From positions 21,125 to 85,124 of the forward strand of contig JBDRLW010000003.1 of assembly GCA_043812655.1 (NCBI GenBank): DNA of 64,000 nt, given 5' to 3'. Under the pieces are notes generated by a model, which was given only the letters and a program-made list of their open reading frames with translations, did not search any database and was not told where the DNA came from. Source of the DNA: a bacterium. Lineage in GTDB: Bacteria; Margulisbacteria; WOR-1; O2-12-FULL-45-9; XYB2-FULL-48-7. Shown one piece after another: positions 23,334-30,539 of the stretch; position 1 is the first letter of the stretch; each line of letters opens with the position of its first letter. A program made the translations under genes and the position numbers.

Positions 23334-24320
23334 TTAAGCCCCTATCATTTTATTGAGTTGCGGTATCGTAAGCCATTCATTGTTCGTGTCACTACTGTAA
23401 TAAAAATCCGCCTTGACCTTTTTACCCCGGGGATGATTGTTTGAGTCCCACCAGTTAAAGTCAGGTTCAATCACAAAACAATCATCAAGCTCTACCGTGT
23501 GCCTGGCGTCATCGGCCGAGATCATCACTTCGTGAAGCTTTTCACCCGCCCGGATGCCAATGAAGTTAACTTTACAATCAGGAGCGACGGCCTTTTTAAG
23601 GTCCATTATGTTCATGCTCGGAATCTTGGGAACAAAAACCTCTCCGCCGTGCATCCTCTCAAAATTCTTCAGTACAAACCTGACCCCCAGTTCCAGTGTT
23701 ATCCAAAACCGCGTCATCCGCTTATCGGTTATCGGGATAACCCCTTCTTTCATTTTCTCTCTAAAAAATGGAACCACACTCCCCCTGCTGCCTACTACAT
23801 TCCCATATCTAACAACCGCAAACCTGGTTCCTTGCAATCCCGAATATGAATTAGCGGCGGTAAATAATTTGTCAGAACAAAGCTTTGTCGCTCCGTAAAG
23901 GTTCACTGGATTACAAGCTTTATCAGTACTTAAGGCTATGACCTTTTTCACTTTGTGCTGCAGTGCCGTTTCGATAATGTTCATTGCTCCTAATACATTG
24001 GTTTTAATCGCTTCCGAGGGATTGTATTCCATAGAAGGGACGATCTTTAATGCGGCAGCATGAACAACATAATCAACCCCCGACATAGCTAAAGAAAGTC
24101 GTTCTTTATCCCGCACGTCTCCAATAAAAAATCGAACATTTTTGTCTTTTTCATAACCTTGCTGCATTTCAAATTGTTTCATCTCATCGCGGCTATAAAT
24201 AATTAGTTTTTTGGGCTTATATTCTTTCAATACTATTTCTATAAGTTTTTTACCGAACGAACCAGTTCCTCCTGTCACCAGTACAACCGCACCATCAAAA
24301 CAACCTTGCTTTTTATTCAT
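23334..24320 (-). CDS. UDP-N-acetylglucosamine 4,6-dehydratase (PseB/FlaA1/CapD short form)
   Basis: 'VLVTGGTGSFGKKL' Rossmann motif and 'YGATKLCSDKLF' (YxxxK). Length about 328 aa fits the PseB/FlaA1 family. Confidence 0.75.
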   Translation of the reverse strand: MNKKQGCFDGAVVLVTGGTGSFGKKLIEIVLKEYKPKKLIIYSRDEMKQFEMQQGYEKDKNVRFFIGDVRDKERLSLAMSGVDYVVHAAALKIVPSMEYNPSEAIKTNVLGAMNIIETALQHKVKKVIALSTDKACNPVNLYGATKLCSDKLFTAANSYSGLQGTRFAVVRYGNVVGSRGSVVPFFREKMKEGVIPITDKRMTRFWITLELGVRFVLKNFERMHGGEVFVPKIPSMNIMDLKKAVAPDCKVNFIGIRAGEKLHEVMISADDARHTVELDDCFVIEPDFNWWDSNNHPRGKKVKADFYYSSDTNNEWLTIPQLNKMIGA

Positions 24321-24540
24321 CTAATTTCTCAACCACCTTTTTATATGCTTTTTTTACCTTACTTGGGAGTGTCGGGTTCAACATTGCCAGTAATTCATGC
24401 CCAAGTATCCGATATTGGCCCCCGATCTTACCAGCGCGCAACACCCCCTTCTTTATTAAACGGCGGAAAGTGGAATCGGAGATCTTGAGCAGTTTTTGTG
24501 CTTCTTCCGAAGTATAAACTTCAGCTTCTTGAAGTATCAT
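24313..24540 (-). CDS. helix-turn-helix DNA-binding protein, excisionase/MerR-like family
   Basis: 75 aa. 'YTSEEAQKLLKISDSTFRRLIKKGVLRAGKIGGQYRI' matches the excisionase-family HTH pattern. Confidence 0.5.
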   Translation of the reverse strand: MILQEAEVYTSEEAQKLLKISDSTFRRLIKKGVLRAGKIGGQYRILGHELLAMLNPTLPSKVKKAYKKVVEKLDE

Positions 24541-24605: not shown

Positions 24606-25514
24606 CTAATTGGCGGCTATCTTATGCCAATATTCTTGAATAAATAAGAAGAACACGCCAGCAAATAATCCGAGCGCCACCCCGATCATCACATTCAATT
24701 TAGTCCGTGGCCTACTCTTCGACTCTGGTTTTTCAGCTTTATCAACTACGGAAAAAGGTGGGATTTCTTTTGAAGCCTCAAGCTTGTTAGATTCCTTTTC
24801 CCGGCGCAACATAGTGTAAATAGAATTATATATCTCATAATCTCTTTGCAACCCACTTTGCCCCCCACCGAGAGGACTCCCTACAGAAGATAGCGGAACT
24901 AATTTCAATTTATCTTCAACTACTTTTAAATCCTTCTCCACTCGTGGCAACTCCTGTTCAATATATTTAAGTTTTTTTTGAGTTTCGGTAAAATTAAGCT
25001 CATTCCAATAATACTCTATAGCACTAATAAAACCATCGGCAACATCGGCCGCCAGCTGCGGTTCATTCGCTTCAACCTTAAGCTCTAAGATATTCCCATT
25101 CATTTTTGGCGGTTTCAGCATCCCTCTAACCGCTAAAACCAGATTTTTCCTTTTAAGTTTTGGGTTATCCCACCCTTTTATTCTTTTGGTTAGATCAAGA
25201 TCGTCAAGCACCTTAGCCGCTACTACTTTACTTTTTAAAAGTTCCGTAATGTCTCCCGCTCCTCCTCCTCCTCCTCCTCCTAAATTGACACCCAGCATGC
25301 TAGCCATCCCAGCATATTGCGATAAATTCCCGCCACCGCCCGAGCGGAATAAAAGAGTCGTTTTAGCTTCATAAACCAGCGGCTGCCTAAAGCTATAAAA
25401 TAAAGCCGCAATCGCAACAAATAATGTTACAAGCGCGATCGTTTTCCATTTTTTTAATATTACTTCAAGATATTCCCGCAAGTCAATTTCGTCGTCGTAA
25501 GATTCATTTGTCAT
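24606..25514 (-). CDS. wzz: polysaccharide chain-length determinant (Wzz/PCP family) with internal poly-Gly tract
   Basis: N-terminal 'REYLEVILKKWKTIALVTLFVAIAALFYSF' is a Wzz-like N-terminal TM segment. Central coiled region present. C-terminal TM 'IGVALGLFAGVFFLFI'. Confidence 0.6.
   Translation of the reverse strand: MTNESYDDEIDLREYLEVILKKWKTIALVTLFVAIAALFYSFRQPLVYEAKTTLLFRSGGGGNLSQYAGMASMLGVNLGGGGGGGAGDITELLKSKVVAAKVLDDLDLTKRIKGWDNPKLKRKNLVLAVRGMLKPPKMNGNILELKVEANEPQLAADVADGFISAIEYYWNELNFTETQKKLKYIEQELPRVEKDLKVVEDKLKLVPLSSVGSPLGGGQSGLQRDYEIYNSIYTMLRREKESNKLEASKEIPPFSVVDKAEKPESKSRPRTKLNVMIGVALGLFAGVFFLFIQEYWHKIAAN
25259..25283. repeat. (CCT)n trinucleotide tract encoding poly-Gly within wzz
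   Basis: 'tcctcctcctcctcctcctcct' read directly. It encodes the GGGGGGG run in the Wzz ORF. Confidence 0.7.
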
Positions 25515-25520
25515 CGTTTA

Positions 25521-25653
25521 GGCCTCCTTTAACTTATGAACTTAGGAACTAAAGAACGAAAAAACTTAGAAACTAAGGGACTAAAGAACTTAAAGACTTA
25601 AAACCAAGGGACTAAAAAACCAAAGAACTTAAAAAACAAAAGAACCTAGGAAC
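25521..25653. repeat. AAGAAC/ACTAAAGAAC-word-rich degenerate repeat (left inverted repeat of the TA/four-helix-bundle cassette)
   Basis: Read directly: 'gggactaaagaact...gggactaaaaaaccaaagaactt...aggaacttaagaac'. A reverse-complement copy lies at 27011-27050. Confidence 0.55.
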
Positions 25654-26052
25654 TTAAGAACTGCGAGTCATGCCATCCTTGCGAACTCTAGATGTAAAAG
25701 CTTTGAGTTGGCGGAAAATGTTTTCCGCTTTACTTAAGTACAATTTATGGTCAGCATCAATAATGTATCCATCGTCCAATGCCGCGTCCAAACAAGCCAC
25801 CACTTCACCAACCGAAGTTAAAGCTGTATTGAGAAATCTGCTAAAATCAACATCCGAATATCTTTCCGATCCTTCGGCAATATTTAGTAGGATTGAGTCC
25901 ATGGCTCGCCATAATTGTGAAGTTAAACAATATTGTTCTTCTTTAGGGAATTTTTTCTTGCTTAATTGTTTTAATCCAACCCTAAATTCGCGAGCATCTT
26001 TGTATACCGGAAACTCTCTAAATCTAAATACGCTTATTGTTTTTTCGTTCAT
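25654..26052 (-). CDS. four-helix-bundle protein (23S rRNA intervening-sequence protein family, PF05635/TIGR02436-like)
   Basis: 'FPKEEQYCLTSQLWRAMDSILLNIAEGSERYS' matches the conserved family core (FPKEE...L.SQ.RRAa.Si..NIAEG). Confidence 0.7.
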   Translation of the reverse strand: MNEKTISVFRFREFPVYKDAREFRVGLKQLSKKKFPKEEQYCLTSQLWRAMDSILLNIAEGSERYSDVDFSRFLNTALTSVGEVVACLDAALDDGYIIDADHKLYLSKAENIFRQLKAFTSRVRKDGMTRSS

Positions 26053-26067
26053 AAGTTCATAAGTTTA

Positions 26068-26736
26068 TCAGTTTATAAGTTCTTCAGTCTTTCCGTTCTT
26101 CATGATAAAATCAATTACCCGACCAAACGAATCATCAATGAACCGTTGGTCACGGTAAGTTATTAGTTGCTTTAGCTCTGGCTGATAAACATCTTTTATG
26201 AGTTGGCAACGCTCAAGCAATATTGGCAATTTCCCCTTAAAAACATCTAAATTCGCGATAAGCTTCTCCCTATCTTCATCTATCACTACTGCCAGGTCAA
26301 AAATATCCCGGCTTTTAAACTGTTCCGCCCGATAAAATATTTTTTTGACTATTATCTCCGGCGGGGTTTCAATGTTGATTTGATAACGTCCAACCTTCAT
26401 CTTTCCAATTGGCTCCTTGGTCAAATAAGGAGCGGCAATAAAATCAATAAAAACATCACCCTTTAACTTTATTTTGAGATAATTAGATTGTTCTTCCGCT
26501 CCAGCATAATCCTTGTCGCTTTCCACATGATCATTTAAACGTGGCGATAAACACGTTAAATATTGTACGTCGGTCAAAAAAATGTCTATGTCCTTACTGT
26601 AGCGGTGATGATAATAGGACATCAACGCCGTCCCTCCGCCAAACGACCATTTATTGACCGGTATTTGTGCTGATTCCAGGTAAGCAATAGCTTTCAATAA
26701 AATTTTTTCCCACTTTTCAGTTCTATTATTTAGCAT
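26068..26736 (-). CDS. nucleotidyltransferase, AbiEii/AbiGii toxin family (type IV TA toxin-like)
   Basis: 'WSFGGGTALMSYYHHRYSKDIDIFL' matches the AbiEii GGTAL...R.S.DID NTase core. Confidence 0.6.
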   Translation of the reverse strand: MLNNRTEKWEKILLKAIAYLESAQIPVNKWSFGGGTALMSYYHHRYSKDIDIFLTDVQYLTCLSPRLNDHVESDKDYAGAEEQSNYLKIKLKGDVFIDFIAAPYLTKEPIGKMKVGRYQINIETPPEIIVKKIFYRAEQFKSRDIFDLAVVIDEDREKLIANLDVFKGKLPILLERCQLIKDVYQPELKQLITYRDQRFIDDSFGRVIDFIMKNGKTEELIN

Positions 26737-27004
26737 ACTTGAAATACTCCTCGAACATAAGGTTGCGATAATATTTTCTCACGTTTTTTTTATAATAATT
26801 CAATGTTTGTAGCGCCGTCAACTTATGTTTCTTAATAAAACTCAGGATCGTGCTTAATGGTAATTCCGTAAAAAAAGCAAAGATATGGGCGTAATACTCG
26901 GCTTTCAATAAACCACTTCGAATGAGAGCGGCCGCCGTTTCCTCAGAAATCGGCTTTTTAACTGAAATATTGATAATGGAAAACAATGAATTATCTTTTT
27001 TCAT
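26726..27004 (-). CDS. small protein upstream of an AbiEii-like NTase; putative cognate antitoxin
   Basis: 92 aa, overlapping the NTase start. It shares a 'FIKKHKLTA'/'FAKKHGRQF' motif with the small ORF at 28692-28928. Confidence 0.3.
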   Translation of the reverse strand: MKKDNSLFSIINISVKKPISEETAAALIRSGLLKAEYYAHIFAFFTELPLSTILSFIKKHKLTALQTLNYYKKNVRKYYRNLMFEEYFKYAK

Positions 27005-27010
27005 TTTTTC

Positions 27011-27050
27011 AGTTCCTTCGTTCTTTGGTTCTTTAGTCCTTTGGTCTGTT
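27011..27050. repeat. right inverted repeat of the cassette (reverse complement of the AAGAAC-rich repeat)
   Basis: Its reverse complement 'gaacagaccaaaggactaaagaaccaaagaacgaaggaac' matches 25608-25650. Confidence 0.55.
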
Positions 27051-27161: not shown

Positions 27162-27995
27162 TTACTTCTTAATCACGCTATATAACGTCAAGCCAAGCAT
27201 GATCGTATTAACAAAGCCGGCAAAATCGGAAAAGTAAAAGAAATTCCCTGGGACATTAATCACATCGCCCCCTAGTATTTCCACATCATTTTTCGAGTCC
27301 CCATCATAAATGATCCTTGAGGCATTGATATATTTTTTATCAGGTTTTCCGTTTGCCTGCCTGGCAATTGTCACCGAGCCTAAAAGAGCCTTGGGGCTTG
27401 GCCCGCCGGCAAAGCTGATATAGTCAGACAACTTTTTACCTGGCAAATATTCAAACCGTCCAACCTTGTTCACTTCCCCATAAACGGAAACGTATTTTTT
27501 TTCGCCCATAAAAACCGGTTGGGCGCTATCCCCTGTCGCGTAGATATTAACCATTCTCGGTTGGATCAGCCGAAACGAAAAAACATATTTTTCCTTGTAC
27601 CCGCTTTTTATTTTTTTATCGATCGCTTTTTTGGCTTCAACAATAGAAAGTCCAAGCAGGTTGATCGCCCCAACTTTTGGGAAATAAATTGTCCCTCCCG
27701 GTTCAATCGTAAATATCTGATCGAGAGACATTTCATCTTCTCCAATGATCAGATTAGCAGAAACTATATCGCCAGGGCCAAGCTTATAGGTATTAACATC
27801 GATCGCGTCACCAACATAATCAGAAGTTACTGGCAAGCTAGAAGCTGGATTAGCCGCCGCATAAGCCCTTTTAACATCAGGAATTTGAAACCCCGAGTTT
27901 TTTAGATCATCCAAATTAACAGCAAAAATCGGAGAGCTCAATAAAATTATATTAATAACAAGAAAACTAGCTATATGCTTGATGATCTTTTTCAT
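27162..27995 (-). CDS. wza: polysaccharide export protein (Wza-like: Poly_export plus SLBB domains) with signal peptide
   Basis: N-terminal signal 'MKKIIKHIASFLVINIILLSSPIFA'. 'LGPGDIV' and 'IEPGGTIYFPKVG' are Poly_export/SLBB-like. Confidence 0.6.
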   Translation of the reverse strand: MKKIIKHIASFLVINIILLSSPIFAVNLDDLKNSGFQIPDVKRAYAAANPASSLPVTSDYVGDAIDVNTYKLGPGDIVSANLIIGEDEMSLDQIFTIEPGGTIYFPKVGAINLLGLSIVEAKKAIDKKIKSGYKEKYVFSFRLIQPRMVNIYATGDSAQPVFMGEKKYVSVYGEVNKVGRFEYLPGKKLSDYISFAGGPSPKALLGSVTIARQANGKPDKKYINASRIIYDGDSKNDVEILGGDVINVPGNFFYFSDFAGFVNTIMLGLTLYSVIKK

Positions 27996-28043
27996 AATCT
28001 CCCCCCCCCATTGATTTTATTTTACCAGATATTAGGCACATAT

Positions 28044-28688
28044 TTAGCCTGCCTCCTTGATCTTGTTGCGGAAAAAAGCGGCAATAGTCTTTGGTGCAGC
28101 CGGCTGTTCGCTTAGGTAACGAAGCTTTTCATCGACAACAATATCACCAGTAAATGCCAACTGCTCCAGGAACATCCGCTCGCTAAAGACCTCTCCATAT
28201 TTCTTTTTGGCTATATCAGTTATTTGATCAAGCGCGAGAAAATTATTTTTTACCATGACATAAAGATCAAAATAATCACGGTAATTACCGCGTCGGCCCA
28301 AAGCATATGCCTTGGTCGCCGCGATATCCTTGATCGATAATAACGGTAAATTTCCTGTTGTTTTCACCAATGGAAAAAGCGGTCGCCAATAATAATTCAA
28401 GAGCGTAATTTTAATATTGCCATCTAGAACTATTGTCAACTCATCAGCCGTATCGACTAGAGTGGTAAGATGATATTGGCGCAGTCCGCCCAGAAGTTTT
28501 CTTTTAACGGCAAAGGTAATATCCTTATCACGAAAAAGGTCGAAATCGAGTGACTCACGATGTCCTATCTGCAAAGCTAAAGCCGTACCACCGGCTAGAT
28601 AATAATCATGGCCTAATACTTTATTGAGCCTGGAAAAAACTGTCTTTCTTTCCGGATCAAGTATTTTCCAAAATAATTTTTTATTCAT
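28044..28688 (-). CDS. nucleotidyltransferase, AbiEii/AbiGii toxin family (second copy)
   Basis: 'YLAGGTALALQIGHRESLDFDLF' is the AbiEii NTase core motif. Confidence 0.6.
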   Translation of the reverse strand: MNKKLFWKILDPERKTVFSRLNKVLGHDYYLAGGTALALQIGHRESLDFDLFRDKDITFAVKRKLLGGLRQYHLTTLVDTADELTIVLDGNIKITLLNYYWRPLFPLVKTTGNLPLLSIKDIAATKAYALGRRGNYRDYFDLYVMVKNNFLALDQITDIAKKKYGEVFSERMFLEQLAFTGDIVVDEKLRYLSEQPAAPKTIAAFFRNKIKEAG

Positions 28689-28691
28689 TAT

Positions 28692-28928
28692 TTATGCAAA
28701 CAAAGCCTTAGCGAAAGGCAAGATACTTTTTCGGCTGAATTGCCTGCCATGTTTTTTGGCAAAATTATAGACCGATTTCCTTCCCAATTTCTTTGCCAAA
28801 TAACGCAAATGTTCCATCCTTCCTTTTTCCAAAGCCTGGAAGAGGATCGTATCCCTGTCCTTTTCCAGGGACATTTTATCAAAATCAGCAAACCATAAAA
28901 TTGACTTGAAATATAACGGCAGTCTCAT
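28692..28928 (-). CDS. small protein upstream of the second AbiEii-like NTase; putative cognate antitoxin
   Basis: 78 aa, 3 nt upstream of the NTase. It shares the KKH motif with the 26726-27004 product. Confidence 0.3.
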   Translation of the reverse strand: MRLPLYFKSILWFADFDKMSLEKDRDTILFQALEKGRMEHLRYLAKKLGRKSVYNFAKKHGRQFSRKSILPFAKALFA

Positions 28929-28932
28929 GATA

Positions 28933-30039
28933 TTATTTTACCAGATTTTCAAGATACTTTCCAATCGCCAAACAACTTGTCAACCCGGGACTCTCTATCC
29001 CAATCAAATTAATAAACCTTGGACAACCATTTTCTTTCTCTTCCTTGATCACAAAATCCCTAAACCCATCGTTTGGACCTTGAAGTTTTGGCCGCATTCC
29101 CGCTGTATCTGGCGCCAGCATCGCTTCATCGACCCAAGGCAAATAGGTTTTAACCGCTTGATAAAAATCTTTCCTTTTAGCTGGATCTACATCATAATAA
29201 ATTTTTTCGACATATTCAGTATCCGGCCCCAGTCTAATGTACCCATCAAGATCAAGAGTAGCATGCACTCCAAGCCCATGTCCCTGTTCATGCGGCACCG
29301 GATAAACCAGATGGTTTAATTTCCCTTTAGACCCAGTTACCCCGAAATAATCACCTTTACAATAATAGAGCCTGTAACCAAGCTTATCAATATCAAACCC
29401 GGCTAACTGCGCCATTTTATCGGCGTTTAAACCAGCACAGTTGATCACCCATTCACTCTGAATACTTTCCCCATTCTGATCAGTTAAAACATACCCATCC
29501 CCTTGTTTCTTTATCTCTTTTGTCTCGCTTCCAAACGCGAACATAACCCCGTTCTTCTCGGCTTTTTTATTTAAGCAATCCATTAAACCATGAGAATCAA
29601 TGATCCCCGTCGAACCGGAAAAAATACCGTTCAACGCAAAAACATTTGGTTCGAGAGCCAAAACATCTTCTTTTGTCAATAATCTTAGATCAGGGACCCC
29701 AACCGAAACAGCATTATTATAAATTGATTCTATTTTTTTGGCTTCAGCTTCGTTGGTTGAAATAATTATCTTGCCGCATTTTTTATGCTTCACACCATTT
29801 TCCGCACAAAACTGATATAAAAGTTTGTTACCTTGAAGACATAAAAGACTTTTCAATGAGTCTTTAGGATAATAAATCCCAGCGTGGATAACTTCACTAT
29901 TGCGGCTGCTAGTCTCTTGGCCAAAGCTATCATGCATCTCAAAAACTACGATATCGCCATCAATTTTTTGTGATAAGGCTTCGGCGATCGCAAGTCCAAT
30001 AACGCCGGCTCCAATTATTGATACTTTGACATTGTCCAT
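28933..30039 (-). CDS. FAD-dependent oxidoreductase (DAO family; L-2-hydroxyglutarate oxidase-like)
   Basis: 'VSIIGAGVIGLAIA' dinucleotide-binding motif. Length 368 aa. 'GLRP' and 'IGIESPGLTSCLAIG' at the C-terminus are typical of LhgO/DAO enzymes. Confidence 0.6.
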   Translation of the reverse strand: MDNVKVSIIGAGVIGLAIAEALSQKIDGDIVVFEMHDSFGQETSSRNSEVIHAGIYYPKDSLKSLLCLQGNKLLYQFCAENGVKHKKCGKIIISTNEAEAKKIESIYNNAVSVGVPDLRLLTKEDVLALEPNVFALNGIFSGSTGIIDSHGLMDCLNKKAEKNGVMFAFGSETKEIKKQGDGYVLTDQNGESIQSEWVINCAGLNADKMAQLAGFDIDKLGYRLYYCKGDYFGVTGSKGKLNHLVYPVPHEQGHGLGVHATLDLDGYIRLGPDTEYVEKIYYDVDPAKRKDFYQAVKTYLPWVDEAMLAPDTAGMRPKLQGPNDGFRDFVIKEEKENGCPRFINLIGIESPGLTSCLAIGKYLENLVK

Positions 30040-30041
30040 AT

Positions 30042-30461
30042 TTACCCCATCTGTCCCGCCTTCGGCGGGACATCTTCCCCTTGGTAAGGGGAAGAATATA
30101 AGGAATTATCAATCTTATCTCGAATACTAGCAATCACTTGTTCAAGATTATTAAAAACCTCTTCATTTGTAAAACGAATGAAATTGATTTCTAAACATTC
30201 TATCAATTTCTGTCGTGCTTTATCATAATTGCGTTGATTTCTACTAAGATGATAACCACCATCAATTTCAATTCCCAACCTGACTTCTGGTGAATAAAAA
30301 TCAATCACAAAACCCTTAATGCTATATTGTCTTCGGAACTTATGCCCATTAACTTTTCGTTTTCTTATTTGTTCCCATAATATTTTCTCGGCTTCCGTCA
30401 TATTCTTACGCAGTATTTGTCTTTTTTCTCGATCACGACTTCTATTATATATCTTTGTCAT
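30042..30461 (-). CDS. DUF559 endonuclease-domain protein (Vsr/PD-(D/E)xK-like)
   Basis: 'LRKNMTEAEKILWEQIR', 'FRRQYSIKGFVIDFY', 'LGIEIDGGYH' and 'YDKARQKLIECLEINFIRF' are the conserved DUF559 blocks. The C-terminal tail reads through a flanking inverted repeat. Confidence 0.65.
   Translation of the reverse strand: MTKIYNRSRDREKRQILRKNMTEAEKILWEQIRKRKVNGHKFRRQYSIKGFVIDFYSPEVRLGIEIDGGYHLSRNQRNYDKARQKLIECLEINFIRFTNEEVFNNLEQVIASIRDKIDNSLYSSPYQGEDVPPKAGQMG
30073..30093. repeat. inverted repeat flanking the DUF559 gene (left copy), containing palindrome CCCCTTGGTAAGGGG
   Basis: 'cttccccttggtaaggggaag' read directly. Its partner 'ctcccccttaccaagggggag' lies at 30497-30517. Confidence 0.65.
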
Positions 30462-30496
30462 AAACGCTGATTCTCCCCTATCTTTAACGCCGATAT

Positions 30497-30517
30497 CTCC
30501 CCCTTACCAAGGGGGAG
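30497..30517. repeat. inverted repeat flanking the DUF559 gene (right copy)
   Basis: Reverse complement of the core of the 30073-30093 repeat. Confidence 0.65.
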
Positions 30518-30539
30518 ATTATAGAGGGGGTAATCCATG

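Follow-up and report, generated by a model that had tools for sequence, protein, structure and literature searches.

A small DUF6922-type protein encoded next to a short AbiEii-family nucleotidyltransferase: a putative toxin-antitoxin-type gene pair in a margulisbacterial polysaccharide-export cluster

The window analyzed here, a stretch of 64,000 nucleotides from contig JBDRLW010000003.1 of a member of the Margulisbacteria (GCA_043812655.1), carries two genes for AbiEii-family nucleotidyltransferases (NTases) at a short distance from each other, each of them preceded by a small open reading frame. For the pair located at 28044-28928 on the minus strand this raises three questions: what the two proteins are, whether they belong together, and whether the pair is a copy of its neighbor. 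We consider it reasonably probable that 28044-28928 encodes a two-gene module of the toxin-antitoxin type, resembling MenAT and AbiE, a function that is read from sequence and genomic context. The 78-aa protein is probably the antitoxin of the 214-aa NTase, which it would bind and neutralize.

All genes of the locus are located on the minus strand. The most 5' gene in the listed order is a DUF559 endonuclease-like gene (30042-30461), followed by the gene of a FAD-dependent oxidoreductase (DAO, 28933-30039). Then come the 78-aa ORF of the putative antitoxin or partner (28692-28928) and the gene of the 214-aa NTase, the putative toxin (28044-28688). A wza-like polysaccharide export gene (27162-27995; Poly_export and SLBB domains, EpsE and PEP-CTERM export models) lies between this pair and the first pair, which consists of a 92-aa ORF (26726-27004) and the gene of a 222-aa NTase (26068-26736). 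Next to it we find a gene for a four-helix-bundle "23S rRNA IVP" protein (25654-26052), wzz (24606-25514), an HTH_17 gene (24313-24540) and, further downstream, sugar-modification genes. The distance from the stop codon of the 214-aa NTase gene to the start of the wza-like gene at 27995 is 48 nt, in agreement with the roughly 50 bp given in the first-pass annotation. The 78-aa ORF lies directly upstream of its NTase gene, as had been described, with a gap of only 3 nt (TAA ATA ATG). In the first pair, the NTase gene overlaps the 92-aa gene by 11 nt. Both pairs thus show the bicistronic same-strand order of an AbiE-type operon, with the small gene directly upstream of the NTase gene. Both NTases are named "nucleotidyl transferase AbiEii/AbiGii toxin family protein" by NCBI, and both small ORFs are hypothetical. 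No Shine-Dalgarno sequence is evident 5' of the 78-aa or the 214-aa gene; a promoter-like site is located at 28964-28935 on the minus strand.

The assignment of the larger protein to the AbiEii family had been made from its sequence and is borne out by the model searches. The 214-aa protein, which contains the previously quoted peptide AGGTALALQIGHRESLDFDLF, matches PF08843 (AbiEii) with 52.6 bits and an E-value of 8e-14 at a cutoff of 22.5. It is also matched by the PADLOC AbiEii models, down to 4.6e-8. In an alignment of both NTases of the window and their relatives, the residues G33, G34, R44, S46, D48, D50, K126, D138 and D141 are invariant. G33 and G34, R44 and D48-F-D50 correspond to motifs I and II, with the consensus hG[GS]x9-15DhD and an Arg, K126 corresponds to motif III, a Lys in a hydrophobic context, and R137-D138-Y-F-D141 matches the +DxxD definition of motif IV (PMC3985639). 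The same four motifs are required for toxicity and GTP binding of AbiEii (Dy et al., PMC3985639). The stretch S46-L47-D48, in which the Ser occupies position -2 relative to the catalytic Asp, is invariant in all 20 paired NTase sequences. Judged by their place in the motifs, and not from an alignment with MenT1 itself, S46 and D48 together with the 15-residue spacing from K126 to D141 mirror T39, D41, K137 and D152 of MenT1. T39 of MenT1 is the site of auto-phosphorylation (PMC11375011). Searches with the NTase sequence or the NTase profile found no PDB chain, the solved MenT, AbiEii, MenA and AbiEi structures included. The NTase gene shows a dN of 0.29 at 63% identity, where dS is saturated. 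Judged by these sequence features, the 214-aa protein is a DUF1814/AbiEii-family enzyme with an intact catalytic center.

For the 78-aa protein, 46 homologs were found at 62-100% identity, and all of the named ones belong to Saganbacteria, Margulisbacteria or WOR-1. Their length is conserved and 19 columns of the family are invariant. Comparison with the counterpart in the related genome L012 gave a dN of 0.13 and a dS of 2.2 (dN/dS about 0.06), comparison with an orphan copy in L010 a dN of 0.09 and a dS of 1.9. The 78-aa ORF is a genuine gene under purifying selection. The first-pass annotation had allowed that the small ORFs might be spurious; since this one is conserved next to AbiEii NTases in other genomes, that concern falls away.

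The only Pfam match of the 78-aa protein is DUF6922 (PF21956), with 20.2 bits and an E-value of 4e-4 at a curated cutoff of 27 bits. The same family is matched by 22 of the 28 close homologs, with a best E-value of 3.3e-6. A canonical DUF6922 protein of 96 aa from a related metagenome contig shows 30% identity to the 78-aa protein (BLASTP, E 9e-9). A joint alignment of the 78-aa family and canonical DUF6922 proteins is colinear, with P4, F7, W12, F16, L29 and G36 invariant. In addition, a profile of the 78-aa family was searched exhaustively against 1.84 billion cluster representatives (E<=1e-3). This yielded 96 clusters, mostly of 75-125 aa, and all ten of those tested belong to DUF6922 above the curated cutoff. 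Because of the matches of the homologs, the BLASTP match to a bona fide member and the results of the profile search, homology to DUF6922 is established transitively, and by sequence the 78-aa protein is a divergent subfamily member of DUF6922. In contrast to canonical PF21956 proteins, the Saganbacteria/Margulisbacteria subfamily of the window protein has its own EKGRMEHL and FSRKS motifs. The longer canonical forms end in a C-terminal tail, which overlaps the NTase gene in them; the 78-aa protein does not have this tail.

An AlphaFold2 model of the 78-aa protein (pLDDT 92.4) is all-helical with five helices. Comparison of this model with structures matched neither an HTH nor any other known nucleic-acid-binding fold. 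The profile of the 78-aa family searched against all PDB sequences returned only unrelated proteins (best E 0.13), and homology to MenA1 (PDB 8AN5) was not found by this search. The fold is without a solved structural relative. The protein is basic, with a pI of 10.4 and a net charge of +10.7, and pI values across the family range from 8.9 to 11.4. Neither the 78-aa nor the 92-aa protein matches AbiEi models of Pfam or PADLOC (E<=0.1). The suggestion in the first-pass annotation that the small partners may be a distinct or minimal antitoxin type is a fair reading of these results. The proposed HMM search of the small proteins led to DUF6922, below the cutoff, for the 78-aa protein and to no match for the 92-aa protein, and to AbiEi for neither. 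DUF6922 gave no match in viral contigs, in PLSDB (tblastn) or in PHROGs, which were searched for phage or plasmid carriage, and the 78-aa protein has no PADLOC match. Since viral contigs, PHROGs and PADLOC gave no matches for the small protein, a role in defense is not indicated. No mention of DUF6922 or PF21956 was found in the literature searched. On the Aquifex ece1 and Campylobacter p16192 plasmids, short AbiEii genes are preceded by small ORFs. These were considered as further DUF6922 members and rejected, as the hhalign probabilities of 5.6% and 30% are only suggestive.

The co-occurrence of the small ORF family with PF08843 NTases, which had been proposed as a check, was analyzed with local HMMs in 39 distinct genomic contexts, which were collected by looking up individual homologs and by scanning sets of genomes and metagenomes. 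In 34 of these, the gene immediately downstream of the DUF6922-like one encodes an NTase of the window type, at a spacing of -52 to +57 nt. A truncated NTase is located downstream in two more (L055, and L049 with a fused and truncated gene), and three have no NTase. Among these orphans, L010 follows a Fic gene in a wzz locus and L018, from Daviesbacteria, precedes a gene for a LigT-like 2H phosphoesterase; the third is L058. The hosts belong to several phyla and include Saganbacteria/Margulisbacteria, Gammaproteobacteria, Rhodothermales and candidate-phyla-radiation (CPR) MAGs. The flanks of the pair vary and contain flagellar genes, HEPN/MNT clusters, a peptidase gene, ribosomal genes or polysaccharide loci. 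The small proteins and the NTases diverge in parallel: their pairwise distances are correlated with a Mantel r of 0.86, a value that none of 2000 permutations exceeded. The small protein is the better conserved of the two, with a mean identity of 68% compared with 58% for the NTase and a higher value in 93% of the comparisons. The association of the gene pair is strong and spans phyla.

Two further features of the relatives are relevant here. In the relative P0070, an N-terminal domain is fused to DUF6922 and the gene overlaps an NTase gene of the window type. This domain gave weak, consistent matches to winged-helix families (TrmB, PadR, ArsR and HVO_A0114; E 0.009-0.07) and, by sequence, is a probable wHTH. 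A fusion is also present in P0043, which was counted among the cases of decay. The order of the DAO gene, the 78-aa gene and the NTase gene is common to L012 and L025, and in L025 a wza-like gene is again the next one. As the position of the pair after the DAO gene is constant in three related genomes, the pair is not visibly mobile within this lineage.

Several DUF1814 toxins have been described. MenT1, MenT3, MenT4 and AbiEii attach nucleotides to the 3' ends of tRNAs and halt translation (PMC10435456, PMC11375011, bioRxiv 10.64898/2026.01.19.700257). Their antitoxins come from families that are unrelated to each other. One of these antitoxins, MenA1, has 68 aa, so that a short antitoxin for a toxin of this family is already precedented (PMC10435456). 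MenA1, MenA3 and AbiEi all induce auto-phosphorylation of their toxins (PMC11375011; bioRxiv 10.64898/2026.01.19.700257). The module of the window is most similar to MenAT1 of Mycobacterium tuberculosis, which consists of the MenT1/Rv0078A toxin and the 68-aa MenA1/Rv0078B (PDB 8AN5) and thus of a short toxin and a very short antitoxin. In both cases a short DUF1814 NTase is encoded after a very short helical partner without a recognizable DNA-binding domain. Both NTases have the phospho-acceptor position in [ST]-x-D as well as a Lys and an Asp 15 residues apart. In contrast to MenAT1, the 78-aa family and the NTase profile match no PDB chain by sequence. MenA1 is built of one long and one short helix and is partly disordered, whereas a compact domain of five helices is predicted for the 78-aa protein. 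The 78-aa partner is not a homolog of MenA1, and its family is catalogued only as a DUF.

AbiE of Streptococcus agalactiae and Lactococcus and the MenAT3 and MenAT4 systems combine a COG5340 antitoxin with a DUF1814 toxin. They share with the window module the PF08843 NTase with motifs I-IV and the bicistronic operon in which the partner gene is located upstream. The NTase described here is shorter (214 aa), and phage defense is not indicated for it. AbiEi is a protein of about 200-300 aa with an N-terminal wHTH, whereas the partner found here has 78 aa, no wHTH and no AbiEi match. The P0070 fusion, with its probable N-terminal wHTH followed by DUF6922, resembles AbiEi, in which an N-terminal wHTH is combined with a C-terminal neutralizing domain. 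Neither of the two upstream proteins of the window (78 and 92 aa) fits the description of a COG5340 AbiEi antitoxin. As AbiEi is absent, the module is not AbiE in the strict sense.

By analogy with MenT1, MenT3 and AbiEii, the 214-aa NTase would attach nucleotides to the 3' ends of tRNAs and block translation. The 78-aa protein is proposed to bind the NTase and to hold it inactive. This could occur by occlusion or by induced auto-phosphorylation of the conserved Ser46, two residues before the predicted Mg-binding Asp48. The positive charge of the 78-aa protein may in addition allow binding to nucleic acids, for example to its own promoter. Support for the role as an antitoxin comes from the gene order, the close coupling of the two genes, the statistics of their association, the fusion with a wHTH and the pattern of decay. 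Among the relatives, the small gene is kept while the NTase is lost or truncated, and purifying selection still acts on the orphan in L010. The small gene being kept where the NTase is lost or truncated is the pattern expected of an antitoxin and its toxin.

The main rival explanation is that the DUF6922 protein is a nucleic-acid-binding accessory protein or regulator, either a transcription factor of the operon or a specificity factor for RNA or tRNA, and that the NTase is a non-toxic enzyme which acts together with it and modifies RNA or nucleotides. In favor of this explanation is the degree of conservation. Antitoxins usually evolve faster than their toxins. The higher conservation of the small protein therefore speaks against a function as an antitoxin or is at least unusual for one. 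The strong basicity, which extends over the whole family (pI 8.9-11.4), suits nucleic-acid binding and inhibition alike; the structural comparison, however, revealed neither an HTH nor another known nucleic-acid-binding fold. The orphan copies under purifying selection, with DUF6922 adjoining other enzymes of RNA-end or nucleotide transfer such as the LigT-like protein (L018) and Fic (L010), hint at a function that is not strictly tied to the NTase. The stable chromosomal position in the polysaccharide locus of related genomes would also fit an accessory protein. On the other hand, every characterized member of PF08843 is a growth-inhibiting toxin (PMC3985639, PMC7450476, PMC10435456). Moreover, the truncation of the NTase with retention of the small gene in L055 and L049 fits the decay of a toxin, and the small gene is located upstream and tightly coupled as in toxin-antitoxin operons. 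We regard the accessory or regulatory function as unlikely, while it is the most serious competitor of the toxin-antitoxin module. Far less probable is a decaying, non-functional remnant or a spurious small ORF. Decay does occur in relatives (the truncated NTase of L055, the fused and truncated gene of L049 and the fusion of P0043), and a Shine-Dalgarno sequence is not evident before either gene of the window. Against this, both ORFs are full length with all catalytic residues intact, the small gene has a dN far lower than its dS, and the NTase gene has the dN of 0.29 given above at saturated dS. The 46 homologs of conserved length and the confident AlphaFold2 model (pLDDT 92) likewise argue for an intact module.

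It was also proposed in the first-pass annotation that the two pairs are paralogous and build a tandem defense or addiction islet. On this reading they would have been formed by local duplication of one module of small partner and NTase. The first pair exists as described. Its 222-aa NTase matches PF08843 with 46.8 bits and an E-value of 4.5e-12 and has motifs I-IV. The 92-aa protein belongs to a separate, rare family with three homologs and has no match in Pfam, NCBIfam or PADLOC. With the syntenic protein of L007 it shares 65% identity (dN 0.28, dS 1.8), and the ORF is a genuine gene. Its AlphaFold2 model is of low confidence (pLDDT 62) and too poor for a fold comparison. The presence of two PF08843 genes on the same strand within 3 kb, each with a small upstream ORF, speaks for this reading, and L012 likewise has two pairs of small partner and AbiEii gene in the same polysaccharide locus. 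In L012, however, the pair upstream of wza has a canonical DUF6922 partner and not a homolog of the 92-aa protein. The shared F(A/I)KKH motif is literally present at the identical residues 56-60 of both small proteins, as FAKKH and FIKKH. It is a match of five residues, in which most proteins of the 78-aa family have Asn in place of the His, and it is no evidence of paralogy. Between the 92-aa and the 78-aa protein, BLASTP gave no alignment at E<=100, and hhalign of the 92-aa family with two DUF6922 alignments gave probabilities of 4.4% and 1.3%. Within the window, the family HMM of each small protein matches only its own protein. The BLASTP match of the two NTases is confined to a 24-residue catalytic motif (E 9e-4), with about 20% identity in the alignment, so by sequence the enzymes are distant superfamily relatives only. 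In Saganbacteria CG08, the pair of 92-aa protein and NTase is also located between wza and the IVP/wzz genes, and the second pair is absent from this site. A system call by PADLOC is impossible because no AbiEi is present. A local duplication is thus largely refuted and very improbable, and this idea should be dropped. Because of the small partners, which are unrelated at every level compared, the low identity of the NTases (about 20%) and the different synteny, the two pairs are independent lineages of DUF1814 modules within a conserved polysaccharide-export cluster, for which "islet" is an overstatement. The same locus in related genomes also gathers Fic, DUF4160/DUF2442, HEPN/MNT and IVP genes.

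The two-gene toxin-antitoxin module proposed for 28044-28928 reveals no new kind of system; what would be new is the type of antitoxin. A more general proposal, which we make only tentatively, is that DUF6922 is a family of antitoxins, so far unrecognized, that serves a clade of short DUF1814 NTase toxins in several phyla. It would be a compact, basic five-helix domain that works by itself in a minimal version or is joined to a wHTH in an AbiEi-like version, and it would induce auto-phosphorylation of the conserved Ser near the catalytic Asp. If this is true, the proposed "type VII" control extends to a third, unrelated antitoxin fold, and a Pfam family of unknown function gains a function. 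DUF1814 toxins (AbiEii/MenT) are widespread translation inhibitors, and a third, tiny and structurally distinct partner family would offer a clean test of the idea, put forward in recent work, that antitoxins without structural kinship all cause their toxins to auto-phosphorylate. The partner family spans from CPR-like lineages to Proteobacteria, and a protein of 78 aa is easy to express and to crystallize with its toxin. AbiEii-like genes without an AbiEi neighbor are not necessarily solo toxins, and current tools for finding defense and toxin-antitoxin systems, such as the PADLOC models, overlook such pairs.

The module is bracketed exactly by a 22-nt direct repeat. Its upstream copy, TGATATTATTTTACCAGATTTT (28928-28949), overlaps the last codons and the stop of the DAO gene, and its downstream copy, TGATTTTATTTTACCAGATATT (28012-28033), is located between the NTase stop codon and the ribosome-binding site of the wza-like gene. 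The copies are identical at 20 of 22 positions, and none of 3000 shuffled versions of the flanks reached this match. The repeat is absent from L025 and L012, relatives with the same gene order. A fresh target-site duplication was considered and rejected: the repeat is statistically real and is not read as a recent duplication of this kind, because relatives have the same order of DAO gene, small gene and NTase gene, with or without wza, and no repeat. It contains the DAO stop codon and the extended -10-like sequence TGGTAAAAT on the minus strand, and it may represent a duplication of this element. In L041, a canonical pair of DUF6922 and NTase genes is flanked by 54-nt direct repeats with 52 of 54 identical positions, a hint at cassette-like behavior of such modules.

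Canonical DUF6922 genes, which encode about 100 aa (loci L020-L023 and L035-L048), overlap with their 3' end the start of the NTase gene by a constant 49-52 nt. The overlap encodes, in different frames, the conserved C-terminal tail of the longer canonical DUF6922 protein, CLQKPYSPIPFGLSS, and the conserved N-terminus of the NTase, MFTKALLPDT. Unlike these proteins, the 78-aa form of Saganbacteria has no C-terminal tail, and its gene does not overlap the NTase gene. The two families were also found joined. In P0153 (L049, 339-914) and in P0043, DUF6922 continues in frame into the N-terminal part of an NTase, which comprises motifs I/II and is then truncated. Both proteins have the look of fusions in decay, and they confirm that the DUF6922 and NTase families are linked. 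A different fusion is P0070 (185 aa; L051, 1-1070), in which a probable winged-helix domain is fused to DUF6922. Its gene overlaps an AbiEii-type NTase gene, a layout which resembles AbiEi.

Short AbiEii-family NTases with an upstream ORF are also encoded on the Aquifex aeolicus plasmid ece1 (L053, 1260-2064) and the Campylobacter plasmid p16192 (L054, 1220-2157). These NTases consist of 206-219 aa and show 29-31% identity to the NTase of the window (214 aa). The upstream ORFs, of 82-93 aa, overlap the NTase genes and are unannotated. A W-x-D ... FW pattern common to these ORFs recalls DUF6922; the relation of the ece1 and p16192 ORFs to DUF6922 was not significant (hhalign 5.6% and 30%).

DUF6922-like genes also occur without an NTase. 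In a Daviesbacteria MAG (L018, 3001-3877) such a gene is directly followed by a LigT-like 2H phosphoesterase gene. In a Saganbacteria-like wzz locus (L010, 771-1756) its sequence shares 4 nt with the end of a Fic gene, and purifying selection on this copy persists.

The module of the 78-aa gene and the NTase gene is exactly flanked by two copies of a 22-nt direct repeat (28012-28033 and 28928-28949), which are identical at 20 of 22 positions, a match equalled in none of 3000 shuffles. Within the repeat lie the stop codon of DAO and an extended -10-like TGGTAAAAT. Relatives that have the same gene order lack the repeat. On L041, a metagenome contig of 1.1 kb, a canonical DUF6922 and NTase pair lies between 54-nt direct repeats (20-73 and 998-1051; 52/54 identical), giving a cassette-like arrangement.

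Around the first pair, repeat arrays with an 8-nt period (AACTNARG / GTTCNTNN) were observed at 25531-25666, 26039-26097 and 27005-27046. The window contains 15 occurrences of this pattern, compared to 0.17 expected. About 16 units form one array in the wzz/IVP intergenic space. Inverted arrays are located at the IVP/NTase1 junction and immediately upstream of the 92-aa ORF. The arrays combine into imperfect inverted repeats of 26-35 nt, which enclose the IVP gene and the whole block of IVP, NTase1 and 92-aa ORF. These may represent an RNA stem, as in rRNA intervening sequences, or the boundary of a mobile unit.

Two candidate sites of expression control were noted. A run of nine C (28001-28009; G9 on the coding strand) is part of the Shine-Dalgarno-like GGGGGAG that immediately precedes the start codon of wza; this homopolymer might serve for slipped-strand phase variation of polysaccharide export. 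The 78-aa gene contains, within its final codons and close before the NTase start, a small GC hairpin with a T-run after it (28705-28719, minus strand), which could attenuate expression of the putative toxin; such sites are hardly enriched over shuffles (7 found, 4.2 expected).

Finally, a 24-nt palindromic element occurs near both ends of the DUF559 gene, which encodes a Vsr-like endonuclease. One copy (30072-30095) is located within the 3' end of the gene and the other (30496-30519) upstream of it, and the two are 92% complementary to one another.
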